Of a DNA stretch of 64,000 bases, positions 636-34,172 are shown piece by piece. Location: positions 54,547-118,546 of the forward strand of contig JAGIBK010000003.1 of assembly GCA_017744355.1 (NCBI GenBank), given 5' to 3'. A program made the translations under genes and the position numbers. This DNA is from a bacterium. Lineage in GTDB: Bacteria > Cyanobacteriota > Sericytochromatia > S15B-MN24 > UBA4093. Every line of letters begins with the position of its first letter. Position 1 is the stretch's first letter. Under the pieces are notes generated by a model that saw only the letters and a program-made list of their open reading frames with translations, had not been told where the DNA came from and did no database searches.

Positions 636-877
636 GCATCCTCCTCCTGACCGTCACAGGGCAACGCTTGTTGCCGATCAAATCGACGCACTGACGATAA
701 AATCGTCCTCTATCCAACAGCTATTAACCCCGAATGAAGTGAACTCTATCTTTCTTAATGAAACTAAAACAATACACAAAAAACTGAGATCGTTTCGTTA
801 TCAAAATACCTTTCACGGGAACATGGGATTCGATCGGCTTGCCACGTTTCACGCCTCTCGACCAGCGAGCAACATGC

Positions 878-3037
878 ATGCGTAAAAGCCTTCTCGCCCC
901 TCTTCTGATCGGCCTTCTCGTGAGCGCCGGCTGCACGACCGGGCAGCTCGTCGACACCACCGGGGGCAACGACTCCGGCCTCGCGGCGCGCAACACCGCC
1001 ACCGGCGAGTACACCGGGCAAGTCCTCGGACTGAACGGCAAGCCCGCCGTGAACGTCCAGGTGCAGGGCTATCTGGTCTCCAACAACAGCGCGAGCATCA
1101 TCTCGAACAACAGCGGGGGCCTCATCTCCCACAACGGCTCCAAGTATGCGATTCTCGCCGCCGAGACGCTCTCCACCACCACCGACGCCAAGGGTCGCTT
1201 CAAGCTCGTCAGCCGCAGCGGCTTGCCGATGAACGTCGAGGCCGTCCTCTCGGCGAACGTCAAGGCGATTCAGCTTGGCGTCACCGAAGAGACCAGCGCC
1301 AAGCTCCAGCTCGCCAAGACCGGGCAGATCAGCGGTCGAGTCACGACCCCCAAGGCCCCCTCGGTCACCAACTGGGAAGGGGTGGACGTCTTCATTCCCG
1401 GCACCTCGTACGTGGCCAAGACGGACGCGGCCGGTCGCTACACCCTCTCGAACGTGCCGGTCGGCACCTTCGACCTGGTGGGAACCAAGGCCGGCCTGGG
1501 CCGCGGCAACCAGCCGAGCGTCGGGGTCGCTTCCGAGCAGACGACGCAGGCGCCGGACCTGGCCCTCTCGGTCACCACCCCGGAGATCGCGAGCATCAGC
1601 CAGCCGAACGGTGGTCCCGGCAGCGTCGTCACCCTCACAGGCTCGAACTTCGGGGCCTCCACCGGCGAGAGCCTCGAAGTGACCTTCGGCGGCGCCCAGG
1701 TCGCCGCCCCCCAGCGCGTCGACGACCGGACCCTACGGGTCGAGGTGCCGCCCGCGGCCGACTCGGGGGCCGTCGTGGTCACGGTGAGTGGCATCAAGAG
1801 CAACGCCAAGAACTTCACCGTTCTATCCGAGCTCATCCTCTCGCCCCGCTTTCCGTACCTGCGCAAGGGCCGCCCCCAGCGCTACACCGTCACCGCCCTC
1901 GACCGCGACAAGCACGTCGTTTCCAACCCCTCGGTCACCTGGAGCGTGACGGGCAATACCTTCCAGCTGAACAACGGTCTGGTGACGCCCACGGGCGAGG
2001 GACAGGGAACCCTACGCGTCACCAGCGGCATGCTGCGCGCGCCCCTGGACCTCCAGGCCTTCGATGGCCCGGTCGTCAACACGCTCGCCGGCAGCTACAT
2101 GGGCTTTCGCGACGGGGTAGGCAGCGAGGCGCAGTTCTCCTACCCCAACGGGGTCGCGGTGGACGCGAGCGGCAGCGTCTACGTGGCCGATCGCAACAAC
2201 CACCGCATCCGCATGATCAGCGGCGACGGCCTGGTCAGCACCCTCGCGGGGACCGGCCTTCCCGGGCGCAAGAACACCATCGGGGCCGCTGCGGAATTCT
2301 ACTCCCCCGCCTGCGTCGCCCCGGACGGCAAGGGGAACCTCTTCCTGACCGAAGCGGGCAACCATGATGTCCGGTGCATCTCGCTCACGACCGGCATGGT
2401 CTCGACCGTGGCAGGAGACGGGGTCGCCGGCTACTACGACGCCTGGACCCCTCTAGAGACCGCCCGCTTCAACACCCCCCACGGCCTGGCCGTCGGGAGC
2501 GACGGGACCCTCTACGTCGCCGACTGGGGCAACCAGACCATTCGCTTCATCCTGCCCAACCGGGCCGTGCGCACCATGGCCAACATCATCGTCTACAACG
2601 GGACCCCCGTCCCGGGCTTCGTGGACGGTTCCTACGCGAACGCGCGCTTCAACTATCCCATCGGCGTGGCCGTGGATTCGAGCGGCAAGCTCTACGTCTC
2701 CGACCAGCACAACAACCGCATCCGGCGCATCGACACCGACCTCCAGGTGAGCACCTTCGCCGGCAACGGCGACCCCGCCCTGTTCAACGGCCCCCACGAT
2801 CTGGCGGTCGATGCCGCTGGCAACGTCCTGGTCGCCGATCACGACCACAACCAGATCAAGCAGATCGCCCCCGACGGGACGATCCGCGTGATCGCGGGCT
2901 CGGGGGAGTACGGGCTCGCCGACGGTCGCGGATCGCAGGCGAGCTTCAACGAGCCTTTCGGGGTCGCGGTGGACGCGAGCGGCAGCATCTACGTGGGCGA
3001 TCGCAACAACCACCGCATCCGCCTCATCTGGCCCTAG
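878..3037 (+). CDS. Cell-surface lipoprotein with IPT/TIG-like and Ig-like domains and C-terminal NHL beta-propeller repeats
   Basis: Track ORF 839..3037 begins at TTG; in-frame ATG at 878 gives MRKSLLAPLLIGLLVSAGC (signal peptide then Cys). At least four NHL-type repeats (NNHRIRMISGDG, NNRIRRIDTD, DHNQIKQIAPDG, NNHRIRLIWP). Confidence 0.85.
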   Translation: MRKSLLAPLLIGLLVSAGCTTGQLVDTTGGNDSGLAARNTATGEYTGQVLGLNGKPAVNVQVQGYLVSNNSASIISNNSGGLISHNGSKYAILAAETLSTTTDAKGRFKLVSRSGLPMNVEAVLSANVKAIQLGVTEETSAKLQLAKTGQISGRVTTPKAPSVTNWEGVDVFIPGTSYVAKTDAAGRYTLSNVPVGTFDLVGTKAGLGRGNQPSVGVASEQTTQAPDLALSVTTPEIASISQPNGGPGSVVTLTGSNFGASTGESLEVTFGGAQVAAPQRVDDRTLRVEVPPAADSGAVVVTVSGIKSNAKNFTVLSELILSPRFPYLRKGRPQRYTVTALDRDKHVVSNPSVTWSVTGNTFQLNNGLVTPTGEGQGTLRVTSGMLRAPLDLQAFDGPVVNTLAGSYMGFRDGVGSEAQFSYPNGVAVDASGSVYVADRNNHRIRMISGDGLVSTLAGTGLPGRKNTIGAAAEFYSPACVAPDGKGNLFLTEAGNHDVRCISLTTGMVSTVAGDGVAGYYDAWTPLETARFNTPHGLAVGSDGTLYVADWGNQTIRFILPNRAVRTMANIIVYNGTPVPGFVDGSYANARFNYPIGVAVDSSGKLYVSDQHNNRIRRIDTDLQVSTFAGNGDPALFNGPHDLAVDAAGNVLVADHDHNQIKQIAPDGTIRVIAGSGEYGLADGRGSQASFNEPFGVAVDASGSIYVGDRNNHRIRLIWP

Positions 3038-3041
3038 CCCT

Positions 3042-3083
3042 CAAACGAAACGACCGCCCGGTCTCGGGCGGTCGTTTCGTTTG
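3042..3083. terminator. Long perfect hairpin (18-bp stem, 6-nt loop) between convergent genes; putative bidirectional terminator without U-tract
   Basis: caaacgaaacgaccgccc (3042-3059) pairs exactly with gggcggtcgtttcgtttg (3066-3083). Sits between the NHL gene stop (3037) and the bcp stop (3099). Confidence 0.5.
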
Positions 3084-3098
3084 GGATGGGGGAATGCC

Positions 3099-3569
3099 TT
3101 ACGCCAGCGACTTGTAGATGCGCTCGGCGTGGCCGGTGGCCTTGACGTTGCGGTAGACGGCCTTGAGGACGCCGTCCGCGCCGATCACGAAAGTCGAGCG
3201 GATGACGCCGACGTAGACCTTGCCGTAGTTCTTCTTCTCGCCCCAGGCGCCGAATAGCTCCATCAACTTGTTCTCGGTGTCGCTCAACAGGGTGAAGGGC
3301 AGGCCGTACTTGGTCTGGAACTTGAGGTGCTTCGTGGGGGCATCAGGGCTGACGCCGACCACCACGACCTTCTCGCCGTGGGTGGCCAGGCCGTCGCGGA
3401 AGTCGCAGGCCTCGGTGGTGCAGCCGGGGGTGTCGTCCTTGGGATAGAAGTAGAGGACCAGGTCCTTGCCGGGCACCAGCAGATCGGCAAGGCGATACTC
3501 GCCCTCCTCACCTGCCGGATTGACGCCGCGCAGGGTGATGTCCGGGATGGGGGATCCGACTTCGAGCAT
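3099..3569 (-). CDS. bcp: Peroxiredoxin Bcp (thiol peroxidase, thioredoxin-dependent)
   Basis: LVLYFYPKDDTPGCTTEACDFRD peroxidatic-Cys motif. ATG at 3569 with AAAGGA RBS (track ORF extends to a TTG at 3587). Start is 21 nt downstream of the upstream gene's stop. Confidence 0.88.
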   Translation of the reverse strand: MLEVGSPIPDITLRGVNPAGEEGEYRLADLLVPGKDLVLYFYPKDDTPGCTTEACDFRDGLATHGEKVVVVGVSPDAPTKHLKFQTKYGLPFTLLSDTENKLMELFGAWGEKKNYGKVYVGVIRSTFVIGADGVLKAVYRNVKATGHAERIYKSLA

Positions 3570-3590
3570 GGGATAGGTTCCTTTCAAGAA

Positions 3591-4943
3591 TCAGGCGAGA
3601 ATGGCGCGCAGGGCCTCGCGGAACTCCTGCATCGTCGCGAAGCGCGAGGCGGGCAGGGGATGCATGGCCTTGGCGAGGGCGGTGCCAAGCGCCTCGGGCA
3701 GTTGCGGGTTCAGCTCGTGCGCGGGCGGGTTGGACGTGCGGGAGATGAAGCTCTCGGGCTTCTGGCCCGTCACCAGGTGGTAGAGGGTGGCGCCCAGGCC
3801 GTACACGTCGCTACGCGGATCGGCACCCGAGGCGTTGGTAAAGAGCTCCGGGGCCGAGTAGGCCGGGTCGCGGCCGTGGATCGCCTCGGTGAAGACGATC
3901 GAAGGGTCCCCCTCGATGTGCGCCCCCGAGAAGTTGGTAACCTTCACGATCTCGTCCGAAACGCGGATGCTCGCGGGCGTCACGTTGCGGTGCACGACGG
4001 GGGGCGTGGCGTGGTGGGCCGCGTTCAGACCGGCGGCGGCCTGCGCTGCGTAGCCCACGGCCTCGCGCCACGAGAGCGAGCCGATCCGATCGACCAGGTT
4101 GAAGCCCTCGACCCACTCGGCGATGACGTAGAGGTTGCCCTCGTCCTCGATCACGTCGAGGATGGTGACGAGGTTGGGGTGAGAGAGCTTGGCCGTCGCT
4201 CGGGCCTCGCGCACCGCCCGGTTCTTCCAGAGGGCGAGCTTGTCCGGCGGCAGGTTGACGTCGGAGATGAGCTTCTTGATGAAGACCTGGCGCTCGGTGA
4301 TGGCGTTGAAGGCCTTGAAGGAGACCGAGCGGGGCGAGCGCTTGAGGGTCTCGGCGATCCGGTAGTTCTCGAAGGGCAGGTACTCTTCCTCTTCGAGGTT
4401 GCTGCCGACCAGCACCTGGGCGATCGCCTGGACCTGGGCAGGGGTCGCCTCGTGGCGCATGCGCTCGGCGTCGGCCTGGATGACCGGCAACAGCCGCTCC
4501 AGCGTCACCAGCTCGATGTCGGTCGGGTTCTCCACGTGCATGGGGGTGTGGGGCGGCACGACGATGAGGGCCTTGGTCTTGAGCTTGCCCATCAGCCCCG
4601 AGTTCCAGCGCGAGAGGATGGTGTTGAGGGTCTTGGCCTTCATCTCGCAGCGCTGCAGGGGGTTCTCGATCTGGTGGGGCGGGTTGTTGTCCCGGTGCAC
4701 CCGCCAGGTCTTCTGGTTGACGTGGCCGTGGACCTCGCCCTGCCAGTACTTGGTCTCGATGGCGTAGACCGCGTGGGTCGAGACCAGGATGATGTCGATC
4801 TCGATGTTGCTCTGCTTGTGGTAGAAGCCGGGCAGGATAACGTTCGTCAACGCCACGAAGCCCTCGGGAAGATGGCCGAGCGTGCGCGCGACGGTCTTCT
4901 CGAATTCGTTCACGGGGTTTCCGGCCACGATGATCTGGGCCAT
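3591..4943 (-). CDS. NERD (nuclease-related) domain protein fused to a degenerate Ser/Thr-kinase-like (pseudokinase) domain
   Basis: N-terminal NERD/PD-(D/E)xK-like region (…NIEIDIILVSTHAVYAIETKYW…, D…E-x-K retained). C-terminal kinase fold with APE-like motif (YSAPE) but HRD replaced by HRN (VVHRNVTPAS), DFG replaced by NFS (KVTNFSGA) and no glycine-rich loop. RBS GGAAGGAG upstream of ATG 4943. Confidence 0.85.
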   Translation of the reverse strand: MAQIIVAGNPVNEFEKTVARTLGHLPEGFVALTNVILPGFYHKQSNIEIDIILVSTHAVYAIETKYWQGEVHGHVNQKTWRVHRDNNPPHQIENPLQRCEMKAKTLNTILSRWNSGLMGKLKTKALIVVPPHTPMHVENPTDIELVTLERLLPVIQADAERMRHEATPAQVQAIAQVLVGSNLEEEEYLPFENYRIAETLKRSPRSVSFKAFNAITERQVFIKKLISDVNLPPDKLALWKNRAVREARATAKLSHPNLVTILDVIEDEGNLYVIAEWVEGFNLVDRIGSLSWREAVGYAAQAAAGLNAAHHATPPVVHRNVTPASIRVSDEIVKVTNFSGAHIEGDPSIVFTEAIHGRDPAYSAPELFTNASGADPRSDVYGLGATLYHLVTGQKPESFISRTSNPPAHELNPQLPEALGTALAKAMHPLPASRFATMQEFREALRAILA

Positions 4944-5028
4944 GGGGCGAGGGCTCCTTCCACGTAAGGCATGAGTCTTGCTCTCTTCATCCTACCCGGA
5001 AGAGCGCTTGGCTACGCCTTTTCGTGGC

Positions 5029-6630
5029 TCACGCCAGCGATCGCGCCACCACCCGATGCCAGACCCCCTCCAGGGCGCGCTTGAAGCTGAGGGCGTCCGG
5101 ATAGCGATCGGCGGGGTTCTCTTCGAAGGCCCGGCGGATGATCGCGTCGAGCCCGGCGACCCAGCCCAGGTCCTCCGAGAGGGCCGGGGTGGCCGCGAGG
5201 GTGAGGGCGATCGCCCGGCTCTCGGCCGTCAGGGGCCTGAAGTGCTCGGTGGGGATCAGGCCGAAGGTCCGGGGCCCCAGCCAAGGCTCGGTGGGCATCT
5301 CCCCGGTGATGAGGCGATAGAGGGTGAGCCCCAGCGAGTACAGGTCGGAAGGGGCCTTGGCCTGGTTGGGGGCCGCGAACTGCTCGGGGGGCATGTAGGT
5401 GAAGGTGCCGATCGGCACGTTGGCGTCGAGCGTCAGGTTGGAGGTGCCGAGGGCCGCGTTCTTGGCGATGCCGAAGTCCAGGAGCTTGACGTGGCCCGTG
5501 TGCTGCGTGCGCATGATGTTGCTCGGTTTGATGTCCCGGTGCACGATCCCGCGGGCGTGAGCAAAGGCCAGCACGTCGCAAATGGCGATGCCGACCGAAA
5601 GCACCTGCTCCAGGGGCAGGGGCGCTGCCTCCTCGAGGTTCTCGCCCTCGATCCACTCGGTAACCAGCATGGAGGGCTCCATGTAGTCGTAGACCTTGAC
5701 CACCCCGTCGTGGTGGTTGGAGAGGGCGATGAGGCTCTGGACCTCCTTCTGGAAGCGGGAGATGATGCCGTCGAGGGTCCCGGCCCCGCTCGCCACCTGC
5801 TTGAGGGCGACCTGACGGCCCAGCCGCGTGTCCTCGGCGCAGTAGAGGATCGAGTGCAGGCTGCTGCCCACCACCCGCAGGATGCGGTAGGAGCCCACCA
5901 TCTCACCCGCCTCGCGCATGCGCACGCCCAGCGGGCCGTAGGTGACGGGTCCGGTCTGTTCGGCGCGCTCGCTCACCGGCGCCTGTGGGGGCGCCGGAGG
6001 CACGGGGCGCTTGCGGCGCGAGAAGCCAAACGCGAGCGCGCCGGCGCTGAGCGTCAAGAGCGAGCCCAGGGCCACGTACAAAGAGGTCGGCACCGCAGGG
6101 GCCACGGGGGGCGCGGGCGACGGCGTGGGCGAAGCGGTCGTCTCGGGCTTGAGGGCCCCCGACTGGATCTGGAAGATCAGGTCCTGGGCCGCGAGGCGCA
6201 CCGCCGGGTCGCGCTTGATGGCCTCGGTGCAGAGCGCGATCGCCGCCGCGGGCCGTCCGGCCAAGGCGAGCACCCGCGCGACCGGCAGGTAGTTCCAGCC
6301 GTTCTCGGGCCAGGCCTCGATGGCGTCGTTGCCGTGAGAAATGGCGGCGTCGTAACGCCCCAGCCGCCCGTACAGGCTCGCCAGGCGCAGGTGGGCCTCG
6401 CCGGCGCGCACCTTAGGGGCCGCCTTGAGGAGCGCCTCGAGCTGCGCGATCGCAGCCTCCGGCCTGCCCTGGGCGATCAGATCGTCTACCGCCTGCATGG
6501 CATACACCCAGGCGCGATCGCCCGTGACCTCCTGAGCCGCCCACGCAGGCGCCATCGCCCCGGCGGCCGTCAGGGCGACCGGGGCGATCGAGAGCGTCAT
6601 GGCGAGGATGAGGGCGGCCTTGCCTATCAA
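5029..6630 (-). CDS. Membrane Ser/Thr protein kinase with N-terminal signal peptide and extracytoplasmic TPR-like domain, one TM segment, C-terminal kinase domain
   Basis: VALK lysine, HRDIKPSN catalytic loop, DFG and PPE motifs. N-terminal signal peptide and TPR-like repeats; hydrophobic segment LYVALGSLLTLSAGALAFGF followed by RRKR before the kinase domain. Confidence 0.9.
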   Translation of the reverse strand: MIGKAALILAMTLSIAPVALTAAGAMAPAWAAQEVTGDRAWVYAMQAVDDLIAQGRPEAAIAQLEALLKAAPKVRAGEAHLRLASLYGRLGRYDAAISHGNDAIEAWPENGWNYLPVARVLALAGRPAAAIALCTEAIKRDPAVRLAAQDLIFQIQSGALKPETTASPTPSPAPPVAPAVPTSLYVALGSLLTLSAGALAFGFSRRKRPVPPAPPQAPVSERAEQTGPVTYGPLGVRMREAGEMVGSYRILRVVGSSLHSILYCAEDTRLGRQVALKQVASGAGTLDGIISRFQKEVQSLIALSNHHDGVVKVYDYMEPSMLVTEWIEGENLEEAAPLPLEQVLSVGIAICDVLAFAHARGIVHRDIKPSNIMRTQHTGHVKLLDFGIAKNAALGTSNLTLDANVPIGTFTYMPPEQFAAPNQAKAPSDLYSLGLTLYRLITGEMPTEPWLGPRTFGLIPTEHFRPLTAESRAIALTLAATPALSEDLGWVAGLDAIIRRAFEENPADRYPDALSFKRALEGVWHRVVARSLA

Positions 6631-6788
6631 TCCGGAGTCCTTCTTCGAACAGTGCCTGGGCCCCTTGCCTGAGTCATCATAACAAGCGCGCCGGCCTCTG
6701 CTCCATGTACCCCGGCAGCTGGCGAGCTATCCGGAAGACTGGACGAAAAGCGGCAATCTAAGCCAATCAGGGGCAGTTCAGGGCGCGA

Positions 6789-7541
6789 TCAGGAGCGACG
6801 CGCCAGGTAGGCGATCCGGTAGGTCGAAGCGCTCACGGCGTTCAGGGTCAGGCAGTCGTAGGCGTTCACGAGGTCGAAGCCCGCGCGCTCCAGCGCCTCG
6901 CGGACCTCGAAGAGCGAGTAGCCGCGGTGGTGGTGGGTCTCCCGGATGCGGCGGTACAGGCCGGTGTCGGCCTCCTCGACGAAGTAGTCCACCTTGAGGG
7001 CGCCGATCCGCTTGTGCGGGTCGTAGGAGGCGCGCCAGATGCGGGCGTAGGCGTCCTCGACCTTCACCTCGGTCTCGTTGCCCCAGGCGGTCGAGACCGC
7101 GTACTCGGTGATCGCGTCGAAGAGGAAGAGGCCGCCGGGAGCCAGGTGGGCGGCCACCCGCTCGAAGGCCTTTTCGAGATCCTCGGGAACCAAAAGGTAG
7201 TTGATGGAGTCATAGAAGCAGGTGGCGGCATCGAAGGTGCCACCCAGCGCAAGCTCCCTGATGTCCTGGCAACGCCAGCGCACCTCGGCGCCCCAGCGCG
7301 TGGCCTTGGCCCGCGCGAGCGCCAGCATCGCCTCGGACTGATCCACGGCGGTCACGGCAAGTCCCCGGTTGGCGAAGGCCACCGCGGCCGAGCCGGTCCC
7401 GCAGGCCAGCTCCAGCAGCGATTGAGGTTCATGACCGGACAGCTCCCAGAGCTCGCGGGCGTAGCTGACCATCCGCAAGCTGAAGCGGCTCTGGCCGGTG
7501 CGGTCGTAAACGGAGGCGTAAGCGTCGTAGAGGGCTGACAT
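6789..7541 (-). CDS. Class I SAM-dependent methyltransferase
   Basis: SAM-binding motif LELACGTGSAAVAFA; GC-biased third positions. Confidence 0.85.
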   Translation of the reverse strand: MSALYDAYASVYDRTGQSRFSLRMVSYARELWELSGHEPQSLLELACGTGSAAVAFANRGLAVTAVDQSEAMLALARAKATRWGAEVRWRCQDIRELALGGTFDAATCFYDSINYLLVPEDLEKAFERVAAHLAPGGLFLFDAITEYAVSTAWGNETEVKVEDAYARIWRASYDPHKRIGALKVDYFVEEADTGLYRRIRETHHHRGYSLFEVREALERAGFDLVNAYDCLTLNAVSASTYRIAYLARRS

Positions 7542-7901
7542 GGCAGGTCGCCTGATACAAAAAAGATCGGACGGGTACGATGAAAGACACGTCGCCCCGC
7601 CGGGAAAGCCGGTATTAAATGATTTTTAAAGATTAATAAAGAATACGCTAGAAATCGGTCGGATTTATCTATATACTGAAAAGCTGCCGAGCTCTTCGTG
7701 CGATCGACTGTGACACGCGTCACTTTTCCCGCGGAGCCCGGCGATCCGAGACCAGGGCATTATCCCCTGCGCAGGCGAATTTGGCAAACTGGCCATCCCC
7801 GCCTCGCCCGACCCGGAGCCCGATTCGGATCGCCCCGTCGCCCCGCGACACGCAGAGCGGCCACGCCAGTACGCCTGGCTTTAAATATGAGGAGGTGCTA
7901 G

Positions 7902-8933
7902 TTGCCTAAGCTCGCCGGTGAAATGCTCGTTGAGATCGCCGCTCCGGTCCCCTTCGAAGAAGAGCCCCTCACCCATTCGTCCGACCTCGCCTTCACCAAC
8001 GCCGAGGAAGAGACCGAAGATCTCGACGCCACCGAGACTCCCGAAGAAGAGAGCACTCACACCAAGAAGATCAACGTCGCCACCACGGGGGCTCACCACG
8101 AGCAATCCGACGACTCCATCCGGATGTACCTGCAAGAGATCGGCCGTCGCCGCCTGCTGACCCATCCCGAGGAGCTCGAGCTCGCCCGCCGCGTCGCAAA
8201 CGGCGACGAGAAGGCCAAGCGCATGCTGGTCGCCGCCAACCTCCGTCTGGTGGTTTCCATCGCCCGCAAGCACCTGGGTCGCGGCCTCTCCTTCCTCGAC
8301 CTGATCCAGGAAGGCAACATGGGCCTGATGCGTGCCGCCGAGAAGTACGACTATCGCAAGGGCTTCAAGTTCTCGACCTACGCCACCTGGTGGATCCGTC
8401 AGGCCATCACCCGCGCGATCGCCGACCAGGGCCGCACCATCCGCGTGCCGGTCCACATGGTCGAGACCATCTCGCGCGTCAAGAAGACCATCCGCCTGAT
8501 GAGCCAGAAGCTGGGCCGTGCTCCCAACGAGCACGAGGTCGCCACCGAGCTTGCGATCACCGTCGAGAAGCTCCGCGAGATCACCAAGGCCGACCGCGAG
8601 CCCATCAGCCTCGAAACCCCCATCGGCAAGGACGACGACAGCCGCCTGGGCGACATCATCAAGGACCAGTACACCGCAAGCCCCCCCGCGACCGTCATGA
8701 ACCGGATGCTCTCCGAGGACGTCCAGACCATGCTCGAGACGCACCTGACGGACCGCGAGCTGTACGTGGTGCGCCGCCGCTTCGGCCTCGACGGCGAGAC
8801 CCAGCGCACCCTCGAAGGCATCGGCCACGACATGGGCGTCACCCGCGAGCGGGTCCGCCAGATCGAAGCCAAGGCCCTCCAGAAGCTGCGCAGCTCGGCC
8901 TTCAAGGAGCAGCTGCGGGGCTACCTCAGCTAG
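7902..8933 (+). CDS. RNA polymerase sigma-70 family factor (RpoD-like; resembles cyanobacterial group-2 sigma factors)
   Basis: Regions 2-4 recognisable ([56 protein letters not shown]). TTG start at 7902 with AGGAGG 5 nt upstream. Acidic N-terminal segment. Confidence 0.92.
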
Positions 8934-20450: not shown

Positions 20451-21890
20451 CTACTCGACCATCACCGGGACCATGGTGGAGTCCACCATGCCGTGGATAG
20501 CCTTCTTGTCCGCCGGTGCCACGGTGGCCAGGATCCCGTGCAGGTGCGCCTGTTCGCCGTCCACGAAGTAGTAGGGACAGAGGCGCACGCGGCCATCGAA
20601 CTGGCGGATCTCGCGCCGGTTGAAGTCGTAGTACCGGCTCTGGACCTTGGCGGGCTTGTGGTACTCCTGCAGCAGGTACGGGGTCTCGGGGAAGCTCGCA
20701 AGCGCCGCCTCGACGCGCGTGGCCCACTCCTCGGAAGGGGTGTCGCTGCCGAAGGTGATGCCCCGGCTGCCCCAGGCGAGCTCCGAGAAGCCCGAGGGCT
20801 TGAGCACGAACTCGCGCTGCTTCTTGGTGGTCGGGATCAAGTCGCGGAAGTCGCTGACCGGGCGTCCCTCGACCGTGAGGCCCGGGATCACCCCGTGCGG
20901 CGGCAGGGGGCGCGCATCCACGATCCAGGTGCGGGGCAAGAGCCGCTCCATGGCATGGAAGCTCTCGGCGCCCAGCTCCTGCTCCCAGTAGCCCTGGAGC
21001 ATGGGGTGGTGGAAGAGGGCGAAGAGCATCTTCTCTTCGAGGAAGGTCTTGAAGGGGGGCGTGACGACGACCTGCTGCTTCTTGGCCGCGTACATCATCA
21101 GCTCGGTCTTGGGCACGTTCTTGAGATCGAACAGCTCGAAGAAACGATAGATGACGTCGAGGCGCTCGGCGTCGAGCCAGAAGGCCTCGTCGGCGTAGCG
21201 CAGCTGCTCGGGACGCACGACCTGGACCCGCAAGAGCCCCGCGGCGTTGAGCGCGTCGGCGACGTGGGCCATCTCGTTCCAGTAGTCGTTCGACTCCTGG
21301 GAGATGACGATGGCGACGAAGGGATCGGCCACCTCGGGCACCTGGGCACGGATCATGCGGGCGAAGCCATGCAGCATGCCGTCGGCGCCGCCCACGGTCT
21401 CGAAGCCGAGCTTGGCGTAGGCCGTCGAGAGGCTCGAGACGAAGCCCTGACCGCCGGGCACCGAGTCGAGCTCGCAGGCGATCGCGCGTCCCTCGTCGGT
21501 GAAGATGAGGTCCGGCCGGATGATCGCCGGCACGAGCTTCTTCTGGCGATTCATGCGGGCGTACTCGATCAGGTGCTCGGGCTTGCCCTGCTCCAGGTAC
21601 TCGGCCACCCAGGGCGCGATCTTGCCCTTGACGCTCTCGTAGTAGAGCTTGTTGGCGGCCTGGTAGAACCGCAGCAGGTGGTTACCCAGGCTCTTGACGT
21701 AGAGGTACGTCTCCTTGGAGATGCAGAAGGGCTCCGGCGCGATGCGCCAGGGGATGTGGCTGTCGGGGTGATGGTCGCGGGTGGTCGATTTGAAGATCGC
21801 CTCCCCCTCGGCCATGCGGTTGAGGCTCAGGCAAGCCTCGACCGGATCCACGTGAGAGGGCTTGAGCGCACAGTTTCCGACAATGGTCAT
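20451..21890 (-). CDS. Conserved hypothetical protein, possibly ATP-grasp / glutathionylspermidine-synthase-like ligase (function uncertain)
   Basis: 479-aa ORF with GC-biased third positions; start 9 nt after the upstream zinc-ribbon gene's stop (translational coupling). Family assignment is a guess from overall composition, not a motif match. Confidence 0.75.
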   Translation of the reverse strand: MTIVGNCALKPSHVDPVEACLSLNRMAEGEAIFKSTTRDHHPDSHIPWRIAPEPFCISKETYLYVKSLGNHLLRFYQAANKLYYESVKGKIAPWVAEYLEQGKPEHLIEYARMNRQKKLVPAIIRPDLIFTDEGRAIACELDSVPGGQGFVSSLSTAYAKLGFETVGGADGMLHGFARMIRAQVPEVADPFVAIVISQESNDYWNEMAHVADALNAAGLLRVQVVRPEQLRYADEAFWLDAERLDVIYRFFELFDLKNVPKTELMMYAAKKQQVVVTPPFKTFLEEKMLFALFHHPMLQGYWEQELGAESFHAMERLLPRTWIVDARPLPPHGVIPGLTVEGRPVSDFRDLIPTTKKQREFVLKPSGFSELAWGSRGITFGSDTPSEEWATRVEAALASFPETPYLLQEYHKPAKVQSRYYDFNRREIRQFDGRVRLCPYYFVDGEQAHLHGILATVAPADKKAIHGMVDSTMVPVMVE

Positions 21891-26264: not shown

Positions 26265-27776
26265 TCAATACCCGGCCGCCGTGTAGGTGACGGTCGAGAC
26301 GTACGTATCGGAGGTGTAGGCCCAGCTGGGCAGGAACCGGTAGTCGAAGGTCAGGATCCCGCCGTCGGTGCGGCCGTCGAGCGTGGCGAGGCTCAAGGCC
26401 TGCTGGCTGAAGGCGTCCCAAACGCCGTTGCCCCGGCTCAGCTGCACCTGCGCCCTCACCGCCTCTCCCCCGACCGGCGGCCGCGAGGGGCTCGCGCGAA
26501 AGAGGAAGCTCGAAAGGGGGAGGGTCTCGCGCTCCGAGGTGGGCGCGGTCGCCGCGACCGAGAGGGTGGTTTGGCCATAGTTGCTCTTGAGCGTGACCAC
26601 CGCCGCGCCATCGGCCTGATCGGTGCCGGGGGCCTCCGGGTCGGAGACCAGCTGGATGGGCCCCGTGTTGACGGTGAGCGTCAAGCGAGGGGGCACCGTC
26701 ACCGCAACGGTCGTGGGGGTCAGGACCGCGGGCGGTGCGGCGCCGCTCGCGAAAGCGGCGGTATAGGTCAACTGCGACGTGTAAGTGGCCGGGGCGTACG
26801 CCCAGTCGCTGTCCACCTGAAAGCTCAGATCGAAGGGCGTCTCGGCGGAAGGCCCCGAGAACGAGGCCACCGTCTGGTCCGTTTCGCTCAGGGCACGGGG
26901 CGCGGCCGAGCCGAGACGGAAGGTATAGGCGCCGAAGGGGATGGTGTTGATGCCGTCCGAGAGGGGCCTTGCCCGGATGGCGAGCGTCGTCGCCTCCCCT
27001 GGCCGGGCGTTGCTCTTGAGCACCGCCCTCACGTTGGAGGTGGCGGGCGAAGCCGCCAGCGGATCGGCCGTCAACGTGAAGTGACTCGGCGGGACCGAGA
27101 GGGCCACGCGAGGCGGCACGGTAAGCGCGATCGCGAGGCTGGTCGGCAACACCGGCCCATCCTCGAGGCGGTATCCGTAGCTGAGGCCTGCCGAATAGGT
27201 GCCCCAGGGCTGCAGCCAGCTGTTCTTCAGCTTGAGCTGCGTGTTGTAATACCGGGCACCCTTCTTGCTCTTGCTCAGCCCGAACTGGCGCGTCGCGGTC
27301 GCAAGGGCCTGGTTATTGGGGTTGCTCCGCGATCGCGTGGCCGTCCAGACGGACTTGGAGTCGGTCCCGGCCCCGTCCCAGACCAGGTTGGCGAGCGGCA
27401 TGCTGCCGAACGAGGATAAAAGGTCGCCCGACGCGCCGAGGAAGGCCCCGACCTCGTCCTTCTTGGGGGTCAGAAACCAGAGCGGATCCTGGAGCAGGCC
27501 GCCGAGATCCAGGTCCAGATCGAGCGAAAGACCATCGTCGGGGCCGTTCTGCGAATAGCTGAGTTCGTACTGGATACCGGGGGAGAGGATCGAGACGGGC
27601 TCCGTATCAGGGTTGGAGGCCTCCATGACCCCTACCAGGGAGACGGCACCGCCAAGGGGCGCCCCCGTGGCGGCGTTTTTCAACGACGTCACGGGCGGCG
27701 CCACCTTGGAATCAGCGATCGCCTCGGTTGCCAGTCCCAGCCATGTCGCCACGACCAGGAGGGACAGCCGACGCAT
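26265..27776 (-). CDS. Secreted multi-domain pilus subunit / tip-adhesin-like protein with two SCPU-like modules
   Basis: Signal peptide. Two modules ending in the motif YTSQLTYTAA / YTSDTYVSTVTYTAA, shared with the adjacent 170-aa pilin. Start 2 nt after the pilin stop. Confidence 0.7.
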   Translation of the reverse strand: MRRLSLLVVATWLGLATEAIADSKVAPPVTSLKNAATGAPLGGAVSLVGVMEASNPDTEPVSILSPGIQYELSYSQNGPDDGLSLDLDLDLGGLLQDPLWFLTPKKDEVGAFLGASGDLLSSFGSMPLANLVWDGAGTDSKSVWTATRSRSNPNNQALATATRQFGLSKSKKGARYYNTQLKLKNSWLQPWGTYSAGLSYGYRLEDGPVLPTSLAIALTVPPRVALSVPPSHFTLTADPLAASPATSNVRAVLKSNARPGEATTLAIRARPLSDGINTIPFGAYTFRLGSAAPRALSETDQTVASFSGPSAETPFDLSFQVDSDWAYAPATYTSQLTYTAAFASGAAPPAVLTPTTVAVTVPPRLTLTVNTGPIQLVSDPEAPGTDQADGAAVVTLKSNYGQTTLSVAATAPTSERETLPLSSFLFRASPSRPPVGGEAVRAQVQLSRGNGVWDAFSQQALSLATLDGRTDGGILTFDYRFLPSWAYTSDTYVSTVTYTAAGY

Positions 27777-29449: not shown

Positions 29450-31114
29450 TCAGATGTGATAGCCGCGGAAGCGCTCGGTCTTGGCCTGCGGGCGCAGCAC
29501 GGCCGCGTCCTGGACCCGGGCGGCCTCCTGGGCCACGCCGAAGTAGTCGAGCCACTCTTGCGGGGCGTCGATGGTCTCGCCGCCGTGGCTCGTCAGGCGC
29601 GATCGCACCTGGCACAGCACCGGAGTATTGATCGCAACCCCCGCCACCACCACTTGCCCCTTGGTCAGGGCCGGCAGCTCGTCCAGCAGGTCGCGCCCCG
29701 CGCCCTCGACCGAGCTTGCGATGGTCTGCTGGTCGATGGGGTTCACGATCTTCATGATGAACTGGGTCATGCACTGGGAGAGCACGTCGCTGTCCAGCTT
29801 GCCCGGTCGCTGGGTGATGAGGCCGACCCCCACGCCGAACTTGCGGCCCTCGGCGAGGATCGTCTTGAGGATCGGGGTGCTGACGACTGTGGCCCCGGCC
29901 GGTGCGAAGCGGTGGGCCTCTTCGAGCAGCACGAAGACCGGGTAAGGCACGTAGGTCTCGCCGTCGTGGACCTTGCCGTTCTTGGTGTCCATCCGCGCGC
30001 GGTTGATGCGCCTGAGCAGGGTCGAGACGATCACCTGCTGCATGTCCTGGTCGATCTCGTTGAGCTGGATGACCGTGACCTGGCCGGGGGCGAACAGCTC
30101 GGGCAAAGGCAGGTGGTCCCGGTCGTGGAAGATCCGCGATCGCGCGAAGCGGTCCTCGAGGCGCCAGCGGATGCCCTCGATGGTGCTCGCGTTGGAGGAC
30201 GGATCGTCCTCGGCCCCCTCGGTGCGCATGGCATCCAGCGCGTTGAAGAGGTCCTGGAGGCCCCACAGGTGGCCGTCACCCTTGCGGCCCCGGACCCGGT
30301 CGAAGGCCTTGCCGAGGAAGGCGTTCATCTTCTCGCTCATCATGGGCAGCAGCGATCGCACGTCAGTCTCGGTGAGGCTCGAGAAGCGGATCCGCACCTG
30401 ATCGTGCGGGATGATCCGCACCCGAGGCCGGTAGCCGCCCTGCGAGAAGGCCGGATGGTTCTCGAACTCGCGGAAGGTGTGGTACTCGCCGTGGGGGTCG
30501 ATGACGAGCACCGCCGCGCGGTTGTAGGGGCGCAGCAGCTCCTCGATGAGCACACCCGCCGTGTAGCTCTTGCCGGAGCCGGTGGAGGCCAGAATGGCCA
30601 GGTGGGTCGAGACCAGGTTCTTGACGTCCAGCACCACGGGCACCTCGCCGGCCGCTCGGGTCAAGAGCGAGCCGAGGTGGGCCGAGCCTGGCGCCCCTTC
30701 GGTCTTGGGGCTCAAGACCTCGGTCAAGAAGGCGCTACTGGCCAGGTGGACCCGCGCACCCGGATCGGGCATCATCCGCGGATTGACGAAGCCCTTGAAG
30801 CGCGGATCGAAGTAGCCCGCGATCGAGACCGTCACCTCGTAGAGCTCAGGGGTGGCCGCGTCGAAGCCGATCAGCTCGGCCACCTCGGAAGGCGGGATGT
30901 GGGGATCCGCGAGGAAGGCGTCGGGCAGGGTGCGAACGATGGCCTTCTCGGTGATCTTGCCGAGGATCAGGCGCTCGGTGCCGTCCACCGACACCGGGTA
31001 GTAGACGAACTCGCCCACCTTGGTGCGGGCGTTGTCCGGGGTGATGAAGCGGTACTCGTGGGCGCTCTCGCCCGGGCCCTTGACGGTGCCGATCAACAGG
31101 TCTTGGCTCATCAC
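29450..31114 (-). CDS. herA: HerA-like ATPase/helicase (FtsK-HerA superfamily, DUF87-type)
   Basis: Walker A ILASTGSGKSYT, Walker B VFVLLEEAHRF, LITQRP motif, N-terminal barrel-like region. GTG/ATG start overlaps the upstream gene's TGA (GTGATGA). Confidence 0.88.
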   Translation of the reverse strand: MMSQDLLIGTVKGPGESAHEYRFITPDNARTKVGEFVYYPVSVDGTERLILGKITEKAIVRTLPDAFLADPHIPPSEVAELIGFDAATPELYEVTVSIAGYFDPRFKGFVNPRMMPDPGARVHLASSAFLTEVLSPKTEGAPGSAHLGSLLTRAAGEVPVVLDVKNLVSTHLAILASTGSGKSYTAGVLIEELLRPYNRAAVLVIDPHGEYHTFREFENHPAFSQGGYRPRVRIIPHDQVRIRFSSLTETDVRSLLPMMSEKMNAFLGKAFDRVRGRKGDGHLWGLQDLFNALDAMRTEGAEDDPSSNASTIEGIRWRLEDRFARSRIFHDRDHLPLPELFAPGQVTVIQLNEIDQDMQQVIVSTLLRRINRARMDTKNGKVHDGETYVPYPVFVLLEEAHRFAPAGATVVSTPILKTILAEGRKFGVGVGLITQRPGKLDSDVLSQCMTQFIMKIVNPIDQQTIASSVEGAGRDLLDELPALTKGQVVVAGVAINTPVLCQVRSRLTSHGGETIDAPQEWLDYFGVAQEAARVQDAAVLRPQAKTERFRGYHI

Positions 31115-31686
31115 TTCACCGCCTGGATGGTTCGCTGCCAGTTGAGCGCGTTGCGCAGCACCCCGAGCCGTGCGCGATCCTCAGGGCAGAGGGAGTTGAG
31201 GCGATCGAGGACCGCAAGGAGCAAGCTAAGGCTCGCAGGGCCTCCGTTCGCCTGCACCAGGGGCAGGTAGCGCAGCTGGAGGCGCCCCGTCTCGTCCCGG
31301 TGAAAGCGAACAAAGTCCTCGTCCGGCAGGGTCTCGACCTCGGAGTGGACCGGGATCACCTCGCCCGGCACCTCGTGGACCCCGTGCAGAGCGCCCAGGC
31401 GCCCGAGCAACAGGACGCTCACGAGCGTTGCCTGCTCGTCGATGAGGTCCGGCGTGAAGACCCGGATCTCTTGGGGCGAGTTGCTCAGGCGGGGACCGAA
31501 GTGGCCGAAGTCGGGGTTCTGGAGCTGGGAGTCGAAGACGATGCCGATCGCATCCCCCGCCAGGCGCACGAAGCGGCCGAAGGCGTAAGCGCCAGGCTCG
31601 GGAGGCTCGGGGATCTCACCCGGATGGTAGATCTGGCAGACGTAGTCCAGGTGCGATCGCGACGAGACGATCTTTCCGATGCGCAA
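31111..31686 (-). CDS. Hypothetical protein encoded between nurA and herA
   Basis: TTG start at 31686 with GGAGGGAAGG RBS; stop overlaps herA start; GC-biased third positions; no recognisable motif. Confidence 0.6.
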   Translation of the reverse strand: MRIGKIVSSRSHLDYVCQIYHPGEIPEPPEPGAYAFGRFVRLAGDAIGIVFDSQLQNPDFGHFGPRLSNSPQEIRVFTPDLIDEQATLVSVLLLGRLGALHGVHEVPGEVIPVHSEVETLPDEDFVRFHRDETGRLQLRYLPLVQANGGPASLSLLLAVLDRLNSLCPEDRARLGVLRNALNWQRTIQAVK

Positions 31687-31743
31687 GGCCTTCCCTCCAG
31701 TCGAAGCAACCTTTCGATTCTAGAACAAACGATTGATGTCCGG

Positions 31744-32901
31744 CTAGCGGCGCCGGAGCTTGGAGAGGGCCTTCTTCGAGAAGCGCAGCGGCACGCCGCG
31801 CACGTCGAGGAACTCCTGGACGGTGCGGTAGAAGCCGTCGCGATCGGCCGCCGAGAGCACCGCCGTCGCATCCGCCGCCGCCAGCGTGTAGGGGTAGCCG
31901 CCGCCTGCGATCGCATCGGCGCGCACCACGTCCAGCACCTCGTCCAAGAGGCCCGCCTCCTGGATCCAGAGGGGGTACTCCAGGCGCGCGGGCGGCGCGT
32001 CGGCATTGGTCTGCAGGTAGCAGAAGCCGATGCGGCGGGCCCAGTCTCCATAGTTGTCGAGGATCCCCTCGCGCGCGCAGATGGCGGTCGGGGTGCGATC
32101 GCCCCACTCCAGGCGACCCGCAAGCAGCGCGGCGTCGCTGACCCCGCCGGTCCCCGAGAGGCCCCGCCAGCTGGCGAGCATGGTCGCGAGGTCGTGGGCG
32201 TAAGAGGTGTCCACGTAAGCGATGAGCGGCACCCGCGCGGCCTCGGCGTCAGCCAAGAGCCCTCTCACGAGCTCCACGTACCGAAGTGAATAGGCGTCCT
32301 GCTTGCGCTTCTCAGCAAAGGAGACCACCAGGCTGCCGTCCAGGTAGACGATGCGCCCGGGCTCACCCGGCGCGGCCAGGTAGCGCCTGAGGGCGGCCAC
32401 CTCCAGCTCGAAGCGCGCGAGGTCCACCTTGCGCTTGGGCGGGCCCACCTCGTCCTCCTTGAGGTCGTCGGGGCCCAGCACTCGCACGTCCACGTCCTTG
32501 CGGTAGCCTGGGGCCTCGGCGGCATGCAGGTTCTCGAACCACCCCACCTGGACCAGGGCCACCGGCAGCGAAAAGCGCCGATCGGGCTCGATCTGGCTGC
32601 CGTCCGCCGCGAAGGTCGGCCGGCCCGCGAGCTTATTGAAAGCCCAGGCCCTCGCCGCGGAGTGGTCGTTCCATGAAAGGCCGAAAGGGATCCGCGCACC
32701 CCGGTCCCACTCTTCGGTGGGCAGAGCGCCGGGCGCATCGAAAGTGGCAAGGGCCGCCCCGAGCGACGCGGCATCGGCCTCGGAAAGCGCATCGAGGGCC
32801 GCGACGAGCGCTTCGAGCCGTCCGGTCAGGGCGGCGTCGTAGGCGTCGAACGCGCTCGCGCAGGCTTCCAGGGCCCCCAAGAGGCGATCGCGGTAGAGCA
32901 T
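31744..32901 (-). CDS. nurA: NurA-domain 5'-3' nuclease
   Basis: NurA-like N-terminal catalytic motif (…FAADGSQIEPD…); ATG 32901 lies 2 nt after the patatin stop (TGAgcATG); position upstream of herA as in known nurA-herA pairs. Confidence 0.8.
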   Translation of the reverse strand: MLYRDRLLGALEACASAFDAYDAALTGRLEALVAALDALSEADAASLGAALATFDAPGALPTEEWDRGARIPFGLSWNDHSAARAWAFNKLAGRPTFAADGSQIEPDRRFSLPVALVQVGWFENLHAAEAPGYRKDVDVRVLGPDDLKEDEVGPPKRKVDLARFELEVAALRRYLAAPGEPGRIVYLDGSLVVSFAEKRKQDAYSLRYVELVRGLLADAEAARVPLIAYVDTSYAHDLATMLASWRGLSGTGGVSDAALLAGRLEWGDRTPTAICAREGILDNYGDWARRIGFCYLQTNADAPPARLEYPLWIQEAGLLDEVLDVVRADAIAGGGYPYTLAAADATAVLSAADRDGFYRTVQEFLDVRGVPLRFSKKALSKLRRR

Positions 32902-32903
32902 GC

Positions 32904-34172
32904 TCAGGCGTCGAGGGCGTGGTCGAACTCGCGCGCCATGATGAGAGCCTCCTCGGGGATGTCGGCGACACCCAGGTCGGTGGTGACCCAGGCCTCGCGC
33001 CCCAGGGCGAGGTTGGCGTCGTGATAGCCCTGCTGAATGTAGGTCTCGCGCAGCTCAGGGTGGAAGAACCCCTCGAAGACGTCACCCGGCAAGGACGGCC
33101 GGGGGAAGATGGGGATCAAGCGCACGATCCGCCGCCCCAACAGATCGTCGAGGCTCTTGTAGCCTGCCGCCAGGGCCAGGGTCTCGTTGAAGGTGTTGGC
33201 GAGGACATTGCCGTTCTTGCCGCGCTTGAGCAGCTGGTGAAGGCGAGCGAGCTTGTCGTTCTCCTTGCGGACCTTGCGGTAGTTCTGGACGACGAAGCGG
33301 CCCGCGAGCATCGAGAAGACCCGGCCCAGGACCCCGTAGAGCGTGTCGGGCTCGTGCTCGGGTCGATCGACCACCGTCACGCCCGACACCACCAGCACCG
33401 TGTCGATGTCAGGATCCATGCTGATCACGCGGCCGATGGGCGCGTTGTCCATCAGGCCGCCGTCGAACAGCATCGCGCCGCTCGCCGCGTCGCGGGTGGG
33501 CGGGAAGAGGAAGGGAAAGGAGCTCGACGCCTCGATCATCCGCGTCAGGCGGGGCTGGACGTTCGCCTCCCATTCCTCGTGGGTGGTGTCGGCGCTCCAG
33601 ACGTAGTCCTCGTAGACCGAGTAGCGCGCAGCAAGCTCCATGGCGTCGCTCAAGGAGGTGGAGCCCATCAGGTCGGTGGCGACCAGGCTCAGCTTGACGG
33701 GCCGCTTGATGACCTGCGGAAGGCGGACGTAGTCCTCCATGATCTGCCGGACGAAGTGGTGGGAGATGAGCGAGGCGAAGTCGCCACGGATCAACTGCTC
33801 GAAGGCGAAGAGGGAGTCGAAGCCGATGCGGGGGCGGTACTGCCGGCGCAGGGGGTCGACCCCGATGCGGTTGAAGAGGGTGCGCAGGTTGCGGCGCTCC
33901 AATTCGTCGCCGTCCATCCGGCCGAAGCCGTGGTAGAGGTTCTGCGCGTTGACCGTCTCGCGCCAGTGGTACACCAGCTCCGACTCGACCGCCTGGCCCG
34001 TGAACTGACCGGCGGCAATGAGCTGGGCCGCGAAGGTCCCGTTGATGGCCCCCGCCGAGATGCCCACGATGGCGTCGGGGTAGATCTGGTGCTCAGCGAT
34101 GGCCTTGAGGACGCCCGCTTCGTACGCCCCCTTGGCGACCCCGCCGCACAGTACCAAGCCTACCTTGCCCAT
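32904..34172 (-). CDS. Patatin-like phospholipase
   Basis: Oxyanion-hole motif GGVAKGAYEAG, lipase serine motif GISAG, catalytic Asp motif DGGLMDN. RBS GGAGGG before ATG 34172; first gene of the operon. Confidence 0.88.
   Translation of the reverse strand: MGKVGLVLCGGVAKGAYEAGVLKAIAEHQIYPDAIVGISAGAINGTFAAQLIAAGQFTGQAVESELVYHWRETVNAQNLYHGFGRMDGDELERRNLRTLFNRIGVDPLRRQYRPRIGFDSLFAFEQLIRGDFASLISHHFVRQIMEDYVRLPQVIKRPVKLSLVATDLMGSTSLSDAMELAARYSVYEDYVWSADTTHEEWEANVQPRLTRMIEASSSFPFLFPPTRDAASGAMLFDGGLMDNAPIGRVISMDPDIDTVLVVSGVTVVDRPEHEPDTLYGVLGRVFSMLAGRFVVQNYRKVRKENDKLARLHQLLKRGKNGNVLANTFNETLALAAGYKSLDDLLGRRIVRLIPIFPRPSLPGDVFEGFFHPELRETYIQQGYHDANLALGREAWVTTDLGVADIPEEALIMAREFDHALDA

Follow-up and report, generated by a model that had tools for sequence, protein, structure and literature searches.

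What use could a bacterium make of a kinase domain in which both catalytic aspartates are replaced, when that domain is fused to a nuclease fold that retains its own catalytic residues? The question is raised by the NERD-pseudokinase gene of the window, by which we mean the whole 64,000-nucleotide stretch analyzed here (contig JAGIBK010000003.1 of assembly GCA_017744355.1, positions 54,547 to 118,546 of the forward strand), which comes from a member of the Sericytochromatia, the class-level sister group of Cyanobacteria. The product of the gene is a cytoplasmic two-domain protein of 450 amino acids (aa), with an N-terminal NERD domain and a C-terminal Hanks-type kinase fold. Because this architecture has already been published for PglW and for some DndF proteins, the gene does not represent a new kind of system; the novelty lies in its form, which stands alone, is inherited vertically and is paired in trans with a membrane kinase encoded by a different gene of one conserved chromosomal cassette. 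With about as much doubt as conviction, we favor the reading that the protein is a nuclease effector whose pseudokinase is the interface through which the neighboring active kinase acts on the nuclease.

NERD and pseudokinase domains in one chain

The open reading frame, which was re-translated and whose coordinates were checked, is complete and begins with ATG, and its G+C content at third codon positions (GC3) is 0.94, against 0.85-0.95 in neighboring genes. Pfam assigned residues 12-110 to NERD (PF08378, E 1.8e-16, 61 bits against a cutoff of 22.1) and residues 208-398 to Pkinase (E 4.3e-22, 79 bits against a cutoff of 31.7), and since both scores lie well above the curated cutoffs, neither match is due to chance. 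A search of 5.8 billion proteins returned a tight group of 28 clusters of 447-451 aa, all with NERD and Pkinase domains and 46-95% identical to the query, after which the score drops from 447 to 137 bits, with ordinary kinases from there on. Where the sources of these orthologues are named, they are Candidatus Sericytochromatia or unclassified "Cyanobacteria bacterium" metagenome-assembled genomes, and the gene is carried by 10 species representatives in GTDB. Residue conservation within the family was read from an alignment of 21 orthologues, to which the counts given in this section refer.

The C-terminal domain adopts the kinase fold (Foldseek E 1e-17, template modeling score 0.73-0.81 to PknB structures). 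Residue equivalences were taken from phmmer alignments to two solved kinases, S. aureus PknB/Stk1 and M. tuberculosis PknE, in which VVHRNVTPASI falls on IVHRDIKPQNI, KVTNFSGA on KIFDFGIA and AYSAPE on YFSPE, whereas the segment LKRSPRSVSF falls on the glycine-rich LGGGGMSTVY of S. aureus PknB. The initial annotation, made from the translation, had pointed to HRN in place of HRD, to NFS in place of DFG and to the lack of a GxGxxG loop; the first two align exactly onto the catalytic-base and Mg-binding positions of PknB and PknE, and not outside them, and a glycine-free segment occupies the place of the loop. To these the alignments add the loss of the catalytic-loop Lys and Asn. Position 320 is Asn in 18 orthologues, Gly in two and Ser in one, and position 337 is Asn in 18 and Gly in three, so that neither catalytic Asp is present in any of the 21; position 322 is Thr, Asn, Ser or His, position 325 is Ser, Ala or Cys, and six different residues occur at position 339. 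Invariant, by comparison, are the scaffold residues H318, R319, F338, A364-P365-E366, D379, R434 and E246, the last of these being the alphaC Glu; its partner, the beta3 Lys (K223), is also retained, with Arg in its place in three of the sequences. As all phosphotransfer residues other than the beta3 Lys and the alphaC Glu are lost family-wide, the domain is a pseudokinase by sequence criteria, as the initial annotation had supposed, and its kinase activity has probably been lost. The combination of lost catalytic residues and kept scaffold reads as the signature of a kinase fold retained as a scaffold after catalytic constraint had ended. Within the activation segment lies a GDP(S/T)I motif, in which G345, D346 and P347 are invariant and position 348 is Ser in 15 and Thr in six orthologues, and which is flanked by stretches modeled by AlphaFold2 (AF2) with low confidence (residues 339-345 and 350-356). 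Residue 348, always Ser or Thr in an otherwise invariant motif, would be the best candidate for a phospho-acceptor.

Within the protein, constraint is strongest in the NERD domain, which has a mean pairwise identity of 76% and 42% invariant columns (62 of 147), the corresponding figures for the pseudokinase domain being 55% and 18%. Modeled alone by AF2 (predicted local distance difference test score, pLDDT, 90; predicted template modeling score, pTM, 0.88), it comprises helix 13-22, strands 30-38, 46-54 and 58-64, helix 95-113 and strand 122-129, in which the restriction-endonuclease-like alpha-beta-beta-beta-alpha-beta core is present. The putative catalytic residues sit on the expected elements of this core: the first helix carries E15, the second strand D50 and the third strand E63-x-K65, and D50 and E63-x-K65 both lie within EIDIILVSTHAVYAIETKYW. 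An Asp and an E-x-K pair spaced as in PD-(D/E)xK nucleases had been noticed at the outset, and proper alignment bears this out: D50, E63 and K65, together with E15, are invariant in the 21 orthologues. Conservation also extends to distant relatives in which a NERD domain is followed by two kinase domains (K1 and K2, described below); in an alignment of NERD and K1 across these proteins E15, D50 and the kinase scaffold are invariant, and E63 and K65 are nearly so. The model thus assigns the domain to the PD-(D/E)xK nuclease fold, its set of catalytic residues is complete, and its nuclease activity is probably intact.

The upstream kinase and its cassette

The most informative context of the gene, absent from the initial annotation, is a conserved, apparently active Ser/Thr kinase gene located upstream of it. 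We compared 12 related Sericytochromatia loci with enough flanking DNA and found the same order in all of them, a divergent rpoD-like sigma gene being followed by genes for a methyltransferase, a Ser/Thr kinase and the NERD-pseudokinase, an arrangement that is kept down to 49% identity; the genes downstream of the NERD-pseudokinase gene differ among loci. The kinase gene is directly upstream in 11 of the 12 loci, separated from the NERD-pseudokinase gene by 1-104 nt (by 85 nt in the window), and in the twelfth one unrelated gene is inserted between the two. This insertion, on the opposite strand (L004:5049-7832), encodes a 927-aa protein with guanylate/adenylate cyclase, AAA16 and tetratricopeptide repeat (TPR) domains.

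In the window, the N-terminus of the upstream kinase resembles a signal peptide; TPR repeats come next, then a single hydrophobic helix with RRKR behind it, and finally a kinase domain, and in most loci two hydrophobic segments occur at matching relative positions. The motifs VALK, HRDIKPSN, DFG and (A/P)PE are kept in each of the 12 aligned sequences, one from the window and the rest from 11 loci, and the glycine loop has a conserved, atypical sequence, GSSLHS. It is a membrane protein with an extracytoplasmic TPR region and a cytoplasmic, apparently active kinase domain. Its topology, with the sensor at the N-terminus and the kinase at the C-terminus, is like that of a eukaryotic receptor kinase; bacterial Hanks kinases usually carry the kinase domain at the N-terminus.

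The methyltransferase encoded by the first cassette gene has no (D/N)PP(Y/F) motif in its sequence and is not a DNA N6-methylase. Its NCBIfam matches are all below cutoff, the best being to a daptide-type methyltransferase of ribosomally synthesized and post-translationally modified peptides (85 bits against 175). Just 16-19 nt separate the methyltransferase and kinase genes in some loci. A promoter-like site precedes the methyltransferase gene, and a search of the minus strand from position 2900 to 8000 revealed nothing resembling a terminator, findings that give weak support to co-transcription of the cassette as one transcript. Rank correlation of sequence identities with those of the NERD-pseudokinase across nine loci gave rho values of 0.87 for the methyltransferase, 0.50 for the kinase and 0.60 for the sigma factor, which are suggestive only, given the small number of loci.

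Because a conserved nuclease fold and a dead kinase are linked to an apparently active kinase, and because they are homologous to a module behind which other proteins always carry an active kinase, we read the pseudokinase as an interface. That a pseudokinase should regulate the nuclease fused to it, as the initial annotation proposed, is plausible; the upstream kinase would be connected to it by a physical or a phosphorylation link. The dead kinase domain would offer the kinase encoded upstream a surface for docking or dimerization, perhaps as a heterodimer of kinase folds, and would probably also be a phospho-acceptor for that kinase, at residue 348 of the GDP(S/T)I motif, so that an extracytoplasmic signal sensed via the upstream kinase would switch the NERD nuclease on or off.

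Several points weigh against this reading. The full-length AF2 model, computed with the family alignment as input (mean pLDDT 83, pTM 0.57), represents each domain well, but at this pTM the mutual arrangement of NERD domain and pseudokinase is not fixed, so that the inter-domain geometry is uncertain. Gene order that is conserved within a single class could partly reflect shared ancestry instead of selected linkage. The activity of the upstream kinase is a matter of prediction, because its glycine loop is atypical, and the pseudokinase itself might bind nucleotide, since K223 and E246 are kept. A profile search of Protein Data Bank sequences with the NERD alignment found no solved NERD structure, and the only NERD mutagenesis in the literature searched concerns the divergent protein SmdA (PMC9040797). 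Finally, the upstream kinase is generic and PknB-like, with no special affinity for the K2 domains of MAD6 or PglW, which speaks against a simple gene fission. Fission of a NERD-K1-K2 protein was rejected as the origin of the pair on three grounds: the kinase gene is upstream and not downstream, its sensor is N-terminal, and its best match is of PknB type (169 bits).

Table 1. Features of the NERD-pseudokinase gene and its cassette, in window coordinates.
Feature	Positions	Strand	Basis or remark
NERD-pseudokinase gene	3591..4943 (including stop codon)	-	450 aa; open reading frame list, Pfam, orthologue lengths
Shine-Dalgarno-like sequence GGAAGGAG	4954..4961	-	10 nt before the ATG; read from sequence
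NERD / PD-(D/E)xK nuclease-fold domain, residues 1-147	4503..4943	-	
E15, acidic residue on first helix	4899..4901	-	Invariant in 21/21 orthologues and in distant NERD-K1-K2 proteins
D50, "D" of PD-(D/E)xK, on strand 46-54 of the model	4794..4796	-	Invariant in 21/21 orthologues and in distant relatives
E63-T-K65, (D/E)xK motif, on strand 58-64 of the model	4749..4757	-	E63 and K65 unchanged in 21/21 orthologues and conserved to at least 90% in distant relatives
Helical linker, residues 148-190	4374..4502	-	AF2 helices 148-161 and 168-179, low confidence at 181-186; 53% mean identity
Pseudokinase domain (Hanks/PknB-type fold), residues 191-450	3594..4373	-	Pfam Pkinase, phmmer to PknB/PknE, Foldseek
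LKRSPRSVSF, glycine-free, replacing the GxGxxG glycine-rich loop	4317..4346	-	Aligned to S. aureus PknB; re-translated
HRNVTPAS, replacing the catalytic loop HRDxKxxN	3969..3992	-	Asp to Asn, Lys to Thr (T322), Asn to Ser (S325)
NFS, replacing DFG	3927..3935	-	Alignment to solved kinases
GDP(S/T)I motif of the activation segment, with candidate phospho-acceptor S348	3897..3911	-	Family alignment
APE motif, kept as kinase-fold scaffold element	3846..3854	-	A364, P365 and E366 invariant
Receptor-type Ser/Thr kinase gene	5029..6630	-	Pfam TPR and Pkinase; signal peptide, TPR region, transmembrane helix, C-terminal kinase
Class I S-adenosylmethionine (SAM)-dependent methyltransferase gene (250 aa), first of the cassette	6789..7541	-	Same position in 12/12 loci
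Promoter-like site upstream of the methyltransferase gene	7759..7787	-	TTGCCA-17-GATAAT, 10/12 matches

The NERD-pseudokinase gene lies in an ordinary chromosomal region, not in a defense island or on a plasmid; in its wider surroundings are genes for NAD synthase, leucyl aminopeptidase, MnmA, GpsA and efflux pumps, as well as for a histidine kinase and a chemoreceptor. The divergent sigma factor at 7902-8933 (+) is RpoD-like and short (343 aa), is 79-87% identical across the class and always points away from the cassette; its scores do not reach the NCBIfam RpoD cutoffs, and its match to the sigma-domain portion of the defense-associated MzaA model (PADLOC, 197 bits) is most likely another generic one. 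Downstream, a gene for a PrxQ/Bcp peroxiredoxin (3099-3587 (-)) begins 3 nt past the stop codon of the NERD-pseudokinase gene and was rejected as a cassette member: a Bcp homologue occurs in none of the 12 related loci, and because of this absence the adjacency is probably a coincidence. Two AhpC/TSA redoxin genes flank P0134, one of the distant NERD-K1-K2 proteins (L037:3215-4421). At 839-3037 (+) of the window lies a gene for a 732-aa secreted NHL-repeat protein with weak, sub-cutoff similarity to the scytonemin-associated ScyF/ScyE; this gene is a neighbor of the locus in the closest relative (L006) only. Farther away, a HerA-like ATPase (DUF87, 554 aa), two smaller open reading frames and a patatin-like phospholipase (422 aa) share one strand at 29450-34172 (-) and could form a defense-type cluster, and two open reading frames of 479 and 503 aa, at 20451-21890 (-) and 26265-27776 (-), have gene-like codon composition and no Pfam match at E <= 1e-5.

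Alternative roles and mechanisms

What the cassette is for is a question distinct from how the protein works. It is possible, although we hold it to be doubtful, that methyltransferase, receptor-type kinase and NERD-pseudokinase make up a vertically inherited housekeeping or stress-signaling pathway of Sericytochromatia, in which a signal received by the TPR ectodomain controls a nuclease via a pseudokinase adaptor. An anti-phage role strikes us as unlikely: here the kinase and the NERD-pseudokinase, possibly together with the methyltransferase, would have descended from a MADS- or PglW-like system, become fixed in the lineage and now act as a minimal module for abortive infection or restriction. 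The top family matches of the protein are indeed to defense proteins (MAD6 at 236 bits, PglW at 88 bits), PADLOC reports matches to PD-T4-6, mad6 and PglW, a verified MAD6 begins with a homologous module, and the NERD domain of PglW has been proposed in the literature as a back-up suicidal nuclease. However, every defense-family score is far under its cutoff, and the partners of such systems are missing from the surroundings: the six neighbors within 5 kb gave no match to MAD2, MAD7, MAD8 or PglX/Y/Z, and to no MADS family of NCBIfam, and scans with Pfam, NCBIfam or PADLOC turned up no PglX, PglY or PglZ in the genes on either side or in 20 further large proteins of the window (for PglZ in these 20, by Pfam), the smaller open reading frames having been partly scanned. 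A reduced MADS was likewise rejected, for the methyltransferase matches PADLOC mad2 (PDLC04134) at 70.9 bits, yet a control, E. coli UbiE at L038:1356-2108, reaches 80.7 bits, and the NCBIfam MAD2 model does not match the methyltransferase; since generic SAM-dependent methyltransferases match PADLOC mad2, such a match alone is no evidence of MADS. Defense systems are usually patchy and island-borne, but this gene keeps a fixed chromosomal place beside the rpoD-like sigma gene in 12 of 12 loci and has native codon composition. As an anti-phage role concerns biological function and not mechanism, it could coexist with a nuclease controlled through its pseudokinase.

Other explanations bear on the mechanism itself. 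It seems quite improbable to us that the NERD domain is not an active nuclease and serves instead to bind nucleic acid or protein, which would leave the protein as an adaptor without enzymatic activity, or as a substrate, in a Ser/Thr kinase pathway. The literature searched holds no biochemical demonstration of NERD nuclease activity, and, with 62 of 147 columns invariant, conservation reaches well beyond the active site, a pattern that suggests large surfaces for binding; nevertheless, the E...D...ExK set is invariant family-wide and nearly so in distant relatives, as catalysis predicts. The NERD-like protein SmdA, which has a role in cell morphology, could be taken as a precedent for a binding function, but unlike the window family it lacks several of the most conserved NERD residues (PMC9040797). 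Still less probable, in our judgment, is a kinase-like domain that is not dead and whose main function is nucleotide binding or a non-canonical reaction, such as Mg-independent phosphotransfer or other ATP-dependent chemistry. There are proteins classed as pseudokinases (CASK, SelO, SidJ) that are active in unusual ways, and the retention of K223 (Arg in three of 21) and of the invariant E246, like the occurrence of Asn, and not of a random residue, at both former Asp positions in 18 of 21 orthologues, would fit such an activity. The positions that might compensate (320, 322, 325, 337 and 339) are, however, not conserved, the nucleotide loop is free of glycine, and the K1 domains of the relatives show varied degenerate combinations together with loss of the beta3 Lys, which is typical of relaxed catalytic constraint. 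That the gene is a functionless, decaying remnant of a larger MAD6- or PglW-like gene is scarcely credible: it does match just the first third of MAD6, but 28 intact orthologue clusters of constant length (447-451 aa) and 46-95% identity attest to strong purifying conservation, and the gene has a good ribosome-binding site and native GC3.

Relation to MAD6, PglW, DndF and eukaryotic nucleases

An exhaustive HMMER search of 1.84 billion representatives listed 150 matches, mostly multi-kinase proteins, and among the matches listed were one representative of the window family and seven collinear NERD-K1-K2 proteins with a degenerate K1 (P0134, P0135, P0148, P0149, P0175, P0242 and P0258). The K1 combinations in these seven are HRN/NFK, HRD/NFG, HRD/DFA, HRN/DFR, HRN/NFD and HRA/NFD, their K2 domains are active-looking, and the K1 domains of relatives also lose the beta3 Lys. 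A profile of the window-family pseudokinase scores K1 above K2 in nine of nine two-kinase relatives, and a homologue on a Hymenobacter plasmid combines a first domain carrying HRD...NFS with a second carrying HRD...DFN. When other stand-alone NERD-pseudokinases were sought, a NERD-only profile returned five fragments, and a mixed NERD-K1 profile returned the same 28 clusters and generic kinases, without recovering the MAD6-like input sequences. Given the shared degeneracy of K1 and the conserved scaffold, we conclude that the window protein is homologous to the N-terminal NERD and pseudokinase module of the defense proteins, and that the kinase-like part of this module had already become a pseudokinase in their common ancestor.

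The highest-scoring full-length collinear relatives outside the family are proteins of about 940 aa with the order NERD, K1, K2, transmembrane segment and extracellular region (P0134, P0135, P0148, P0149 and P0175), for which we know of no published name. Their K1 is degenerate (HRN/NFK, HRD/NFG, HRD/DFA or HRN/DFR) and their K2 is of HRD/DFG type (HGD in P0175); a partial protein, probably the N-terminus of this type, is labeled "Oscillatoriaceae cyanobacterium". Like the window cassette, these proteins join the NERD-pseudokinase module with a kinase and a membrane-spanning sensor part, but they do so in one chain and in another order, whereas the window has a separate upstream sensor-kinase gene of opposite topology.

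Among curated families, MAD6 (NCBIfam NF047741), the kinase component of the MADS anti-phage system (bioRxiv 10.1101/2023.03.30.534895), scores best for the window protein, reaching 236.3 bits where its cutoff is 460; residues 1-449 align collinearly with profile positions 1-461 of 612. For comparison we used a verified MADS locus on a Piscinibacter plasmid, in which all four components scanned pass their cutoffs (the DNA methylase MAD2 1015, MAD6 760, MAD7 658 and MAD8 231 bits) and MAD2, MAD7 and MAD8 lie beside MAD6; in the detection model of the MADS authors, MAD7 and MAD8 are mandatory. The Piscinibacter MAD6 (1391 aa) consists of a NERD domain, a K1 with HRNLTPGA...TDFDF and, at about residues 540-755, a K2 with HHCD...DFN. 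Its K1 catalytic loop, HRNLTPGA, resembles the HRNVTPAS of the window protein, and the NERD catalytic residues are common to both. The window protein ends after K1, at residue 450, and covers only the first third of MAD6, whereas in the verified MAD6 an apparently active K2 follows, and after it a long C-terminal half. In score, full architecture and MADS partners it thus falls short of MAD6, with which it shares a homologous N-terminal module.

The likeness to PglW of type 2 BREX (Pgl; NCBIfam NF033442) is of the same kind, with 87.9 bits against a cutoff of 990 on profile positions 48-485, which hold the NERD domain and the inactive kinase. PglW comprises a NERD domain (12-130), an atypical kinase that lacks an ATP-binding site (195-490) and, at 537-816, an active Hanks kinase in which the substitution K677A abolishes defense; the protein is toxic, could not be expressed intact in E. 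coli and was made by in vitro synthesis (PMC4365076). A NERD domain, an inactive kinase and an active kinase have been described both for PglW and for a subset of DndF, and in PglW this tripartite front is followed in the same chain by a sensor half of winged helix-turn-helix (wHTH) and iSTAND domains (PMC12839542). The window protein has neither an active kinase in the same chain nor a wHTH/iSTAND half. Compared by published description, the DndF subset, which belongs to DndFGH systems, has the same N-terminal domain order as the window protein (PMC12839542). DndF is defined by a P-loop nucleotide-kinase core, which is absent from the window protein; among the relatives, P0258 contains a P-loop motif in the C-terminal half and may belong to the DndF kind. 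More generally, NERD domains occasionally co-occur with kinase or pseudokinase domains (PMC9040797, citing Kwon et al. 2019). The view that the architecture is rarely characterized in bacteria, expressed in the initial annotation, therefore holds in that it is experimentally uncharacterized, but not in that it is little described, as it has been reported for PglW and some DndF proteins and is also seen in MAD6.

The module of NERD domain and pseudokinase fronts three anti-phage families, MAD6, PglW and part of DndF, whose proteins are about 1400 aa or longer, and in the literature searched there is no test, for any of the three, of the role of the dead kinase or of nucleic-acid cleavage by NERD. 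The 450-aa stand-alone form consists of the module only, with a single candidate partner kinase encoded next door, and is a simpler object for biochemistry and structure determination. Its fixed chromosomal position across a bacterial class raises the question of whether the module also serves a purpose other than phage defense. If the cassette does serve housekeeping or stress signaling, it could be a non-defense relative, or even the source, of a module that the defense proteins of MADS, BREX type 2 and Dnd systems acquired later; if the gene is merely a trimmed defense gene, it is a routine addition to a known family. Specialists may be moderately surprised by the finding, and its main value lies in a small, tractable model for a module common to MADS, type 2 BREX and some Dnd systems, and in the hint that this module may have work to do beyond defense against phages.

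Outside bacteria, a purely functional analogy can be drawn with RNase L and Ire1, the eukaryotic pseudokinase- or kinase-coupled nucleases. The nuclease differs (KEN instead of PD-(D/E)xK), the domain order is reversed and homology is limited to the kinase fold; what the systems would have in common is a kinase-fold domain, with phosphorylation dispensable, that controls a fused nuclease via dimerization or ligand binding. Were the cassette to prove a housekeeping or stress-signaling pathway, it would be a bacterial counterpart of the logic of Ire1 and RNase L.

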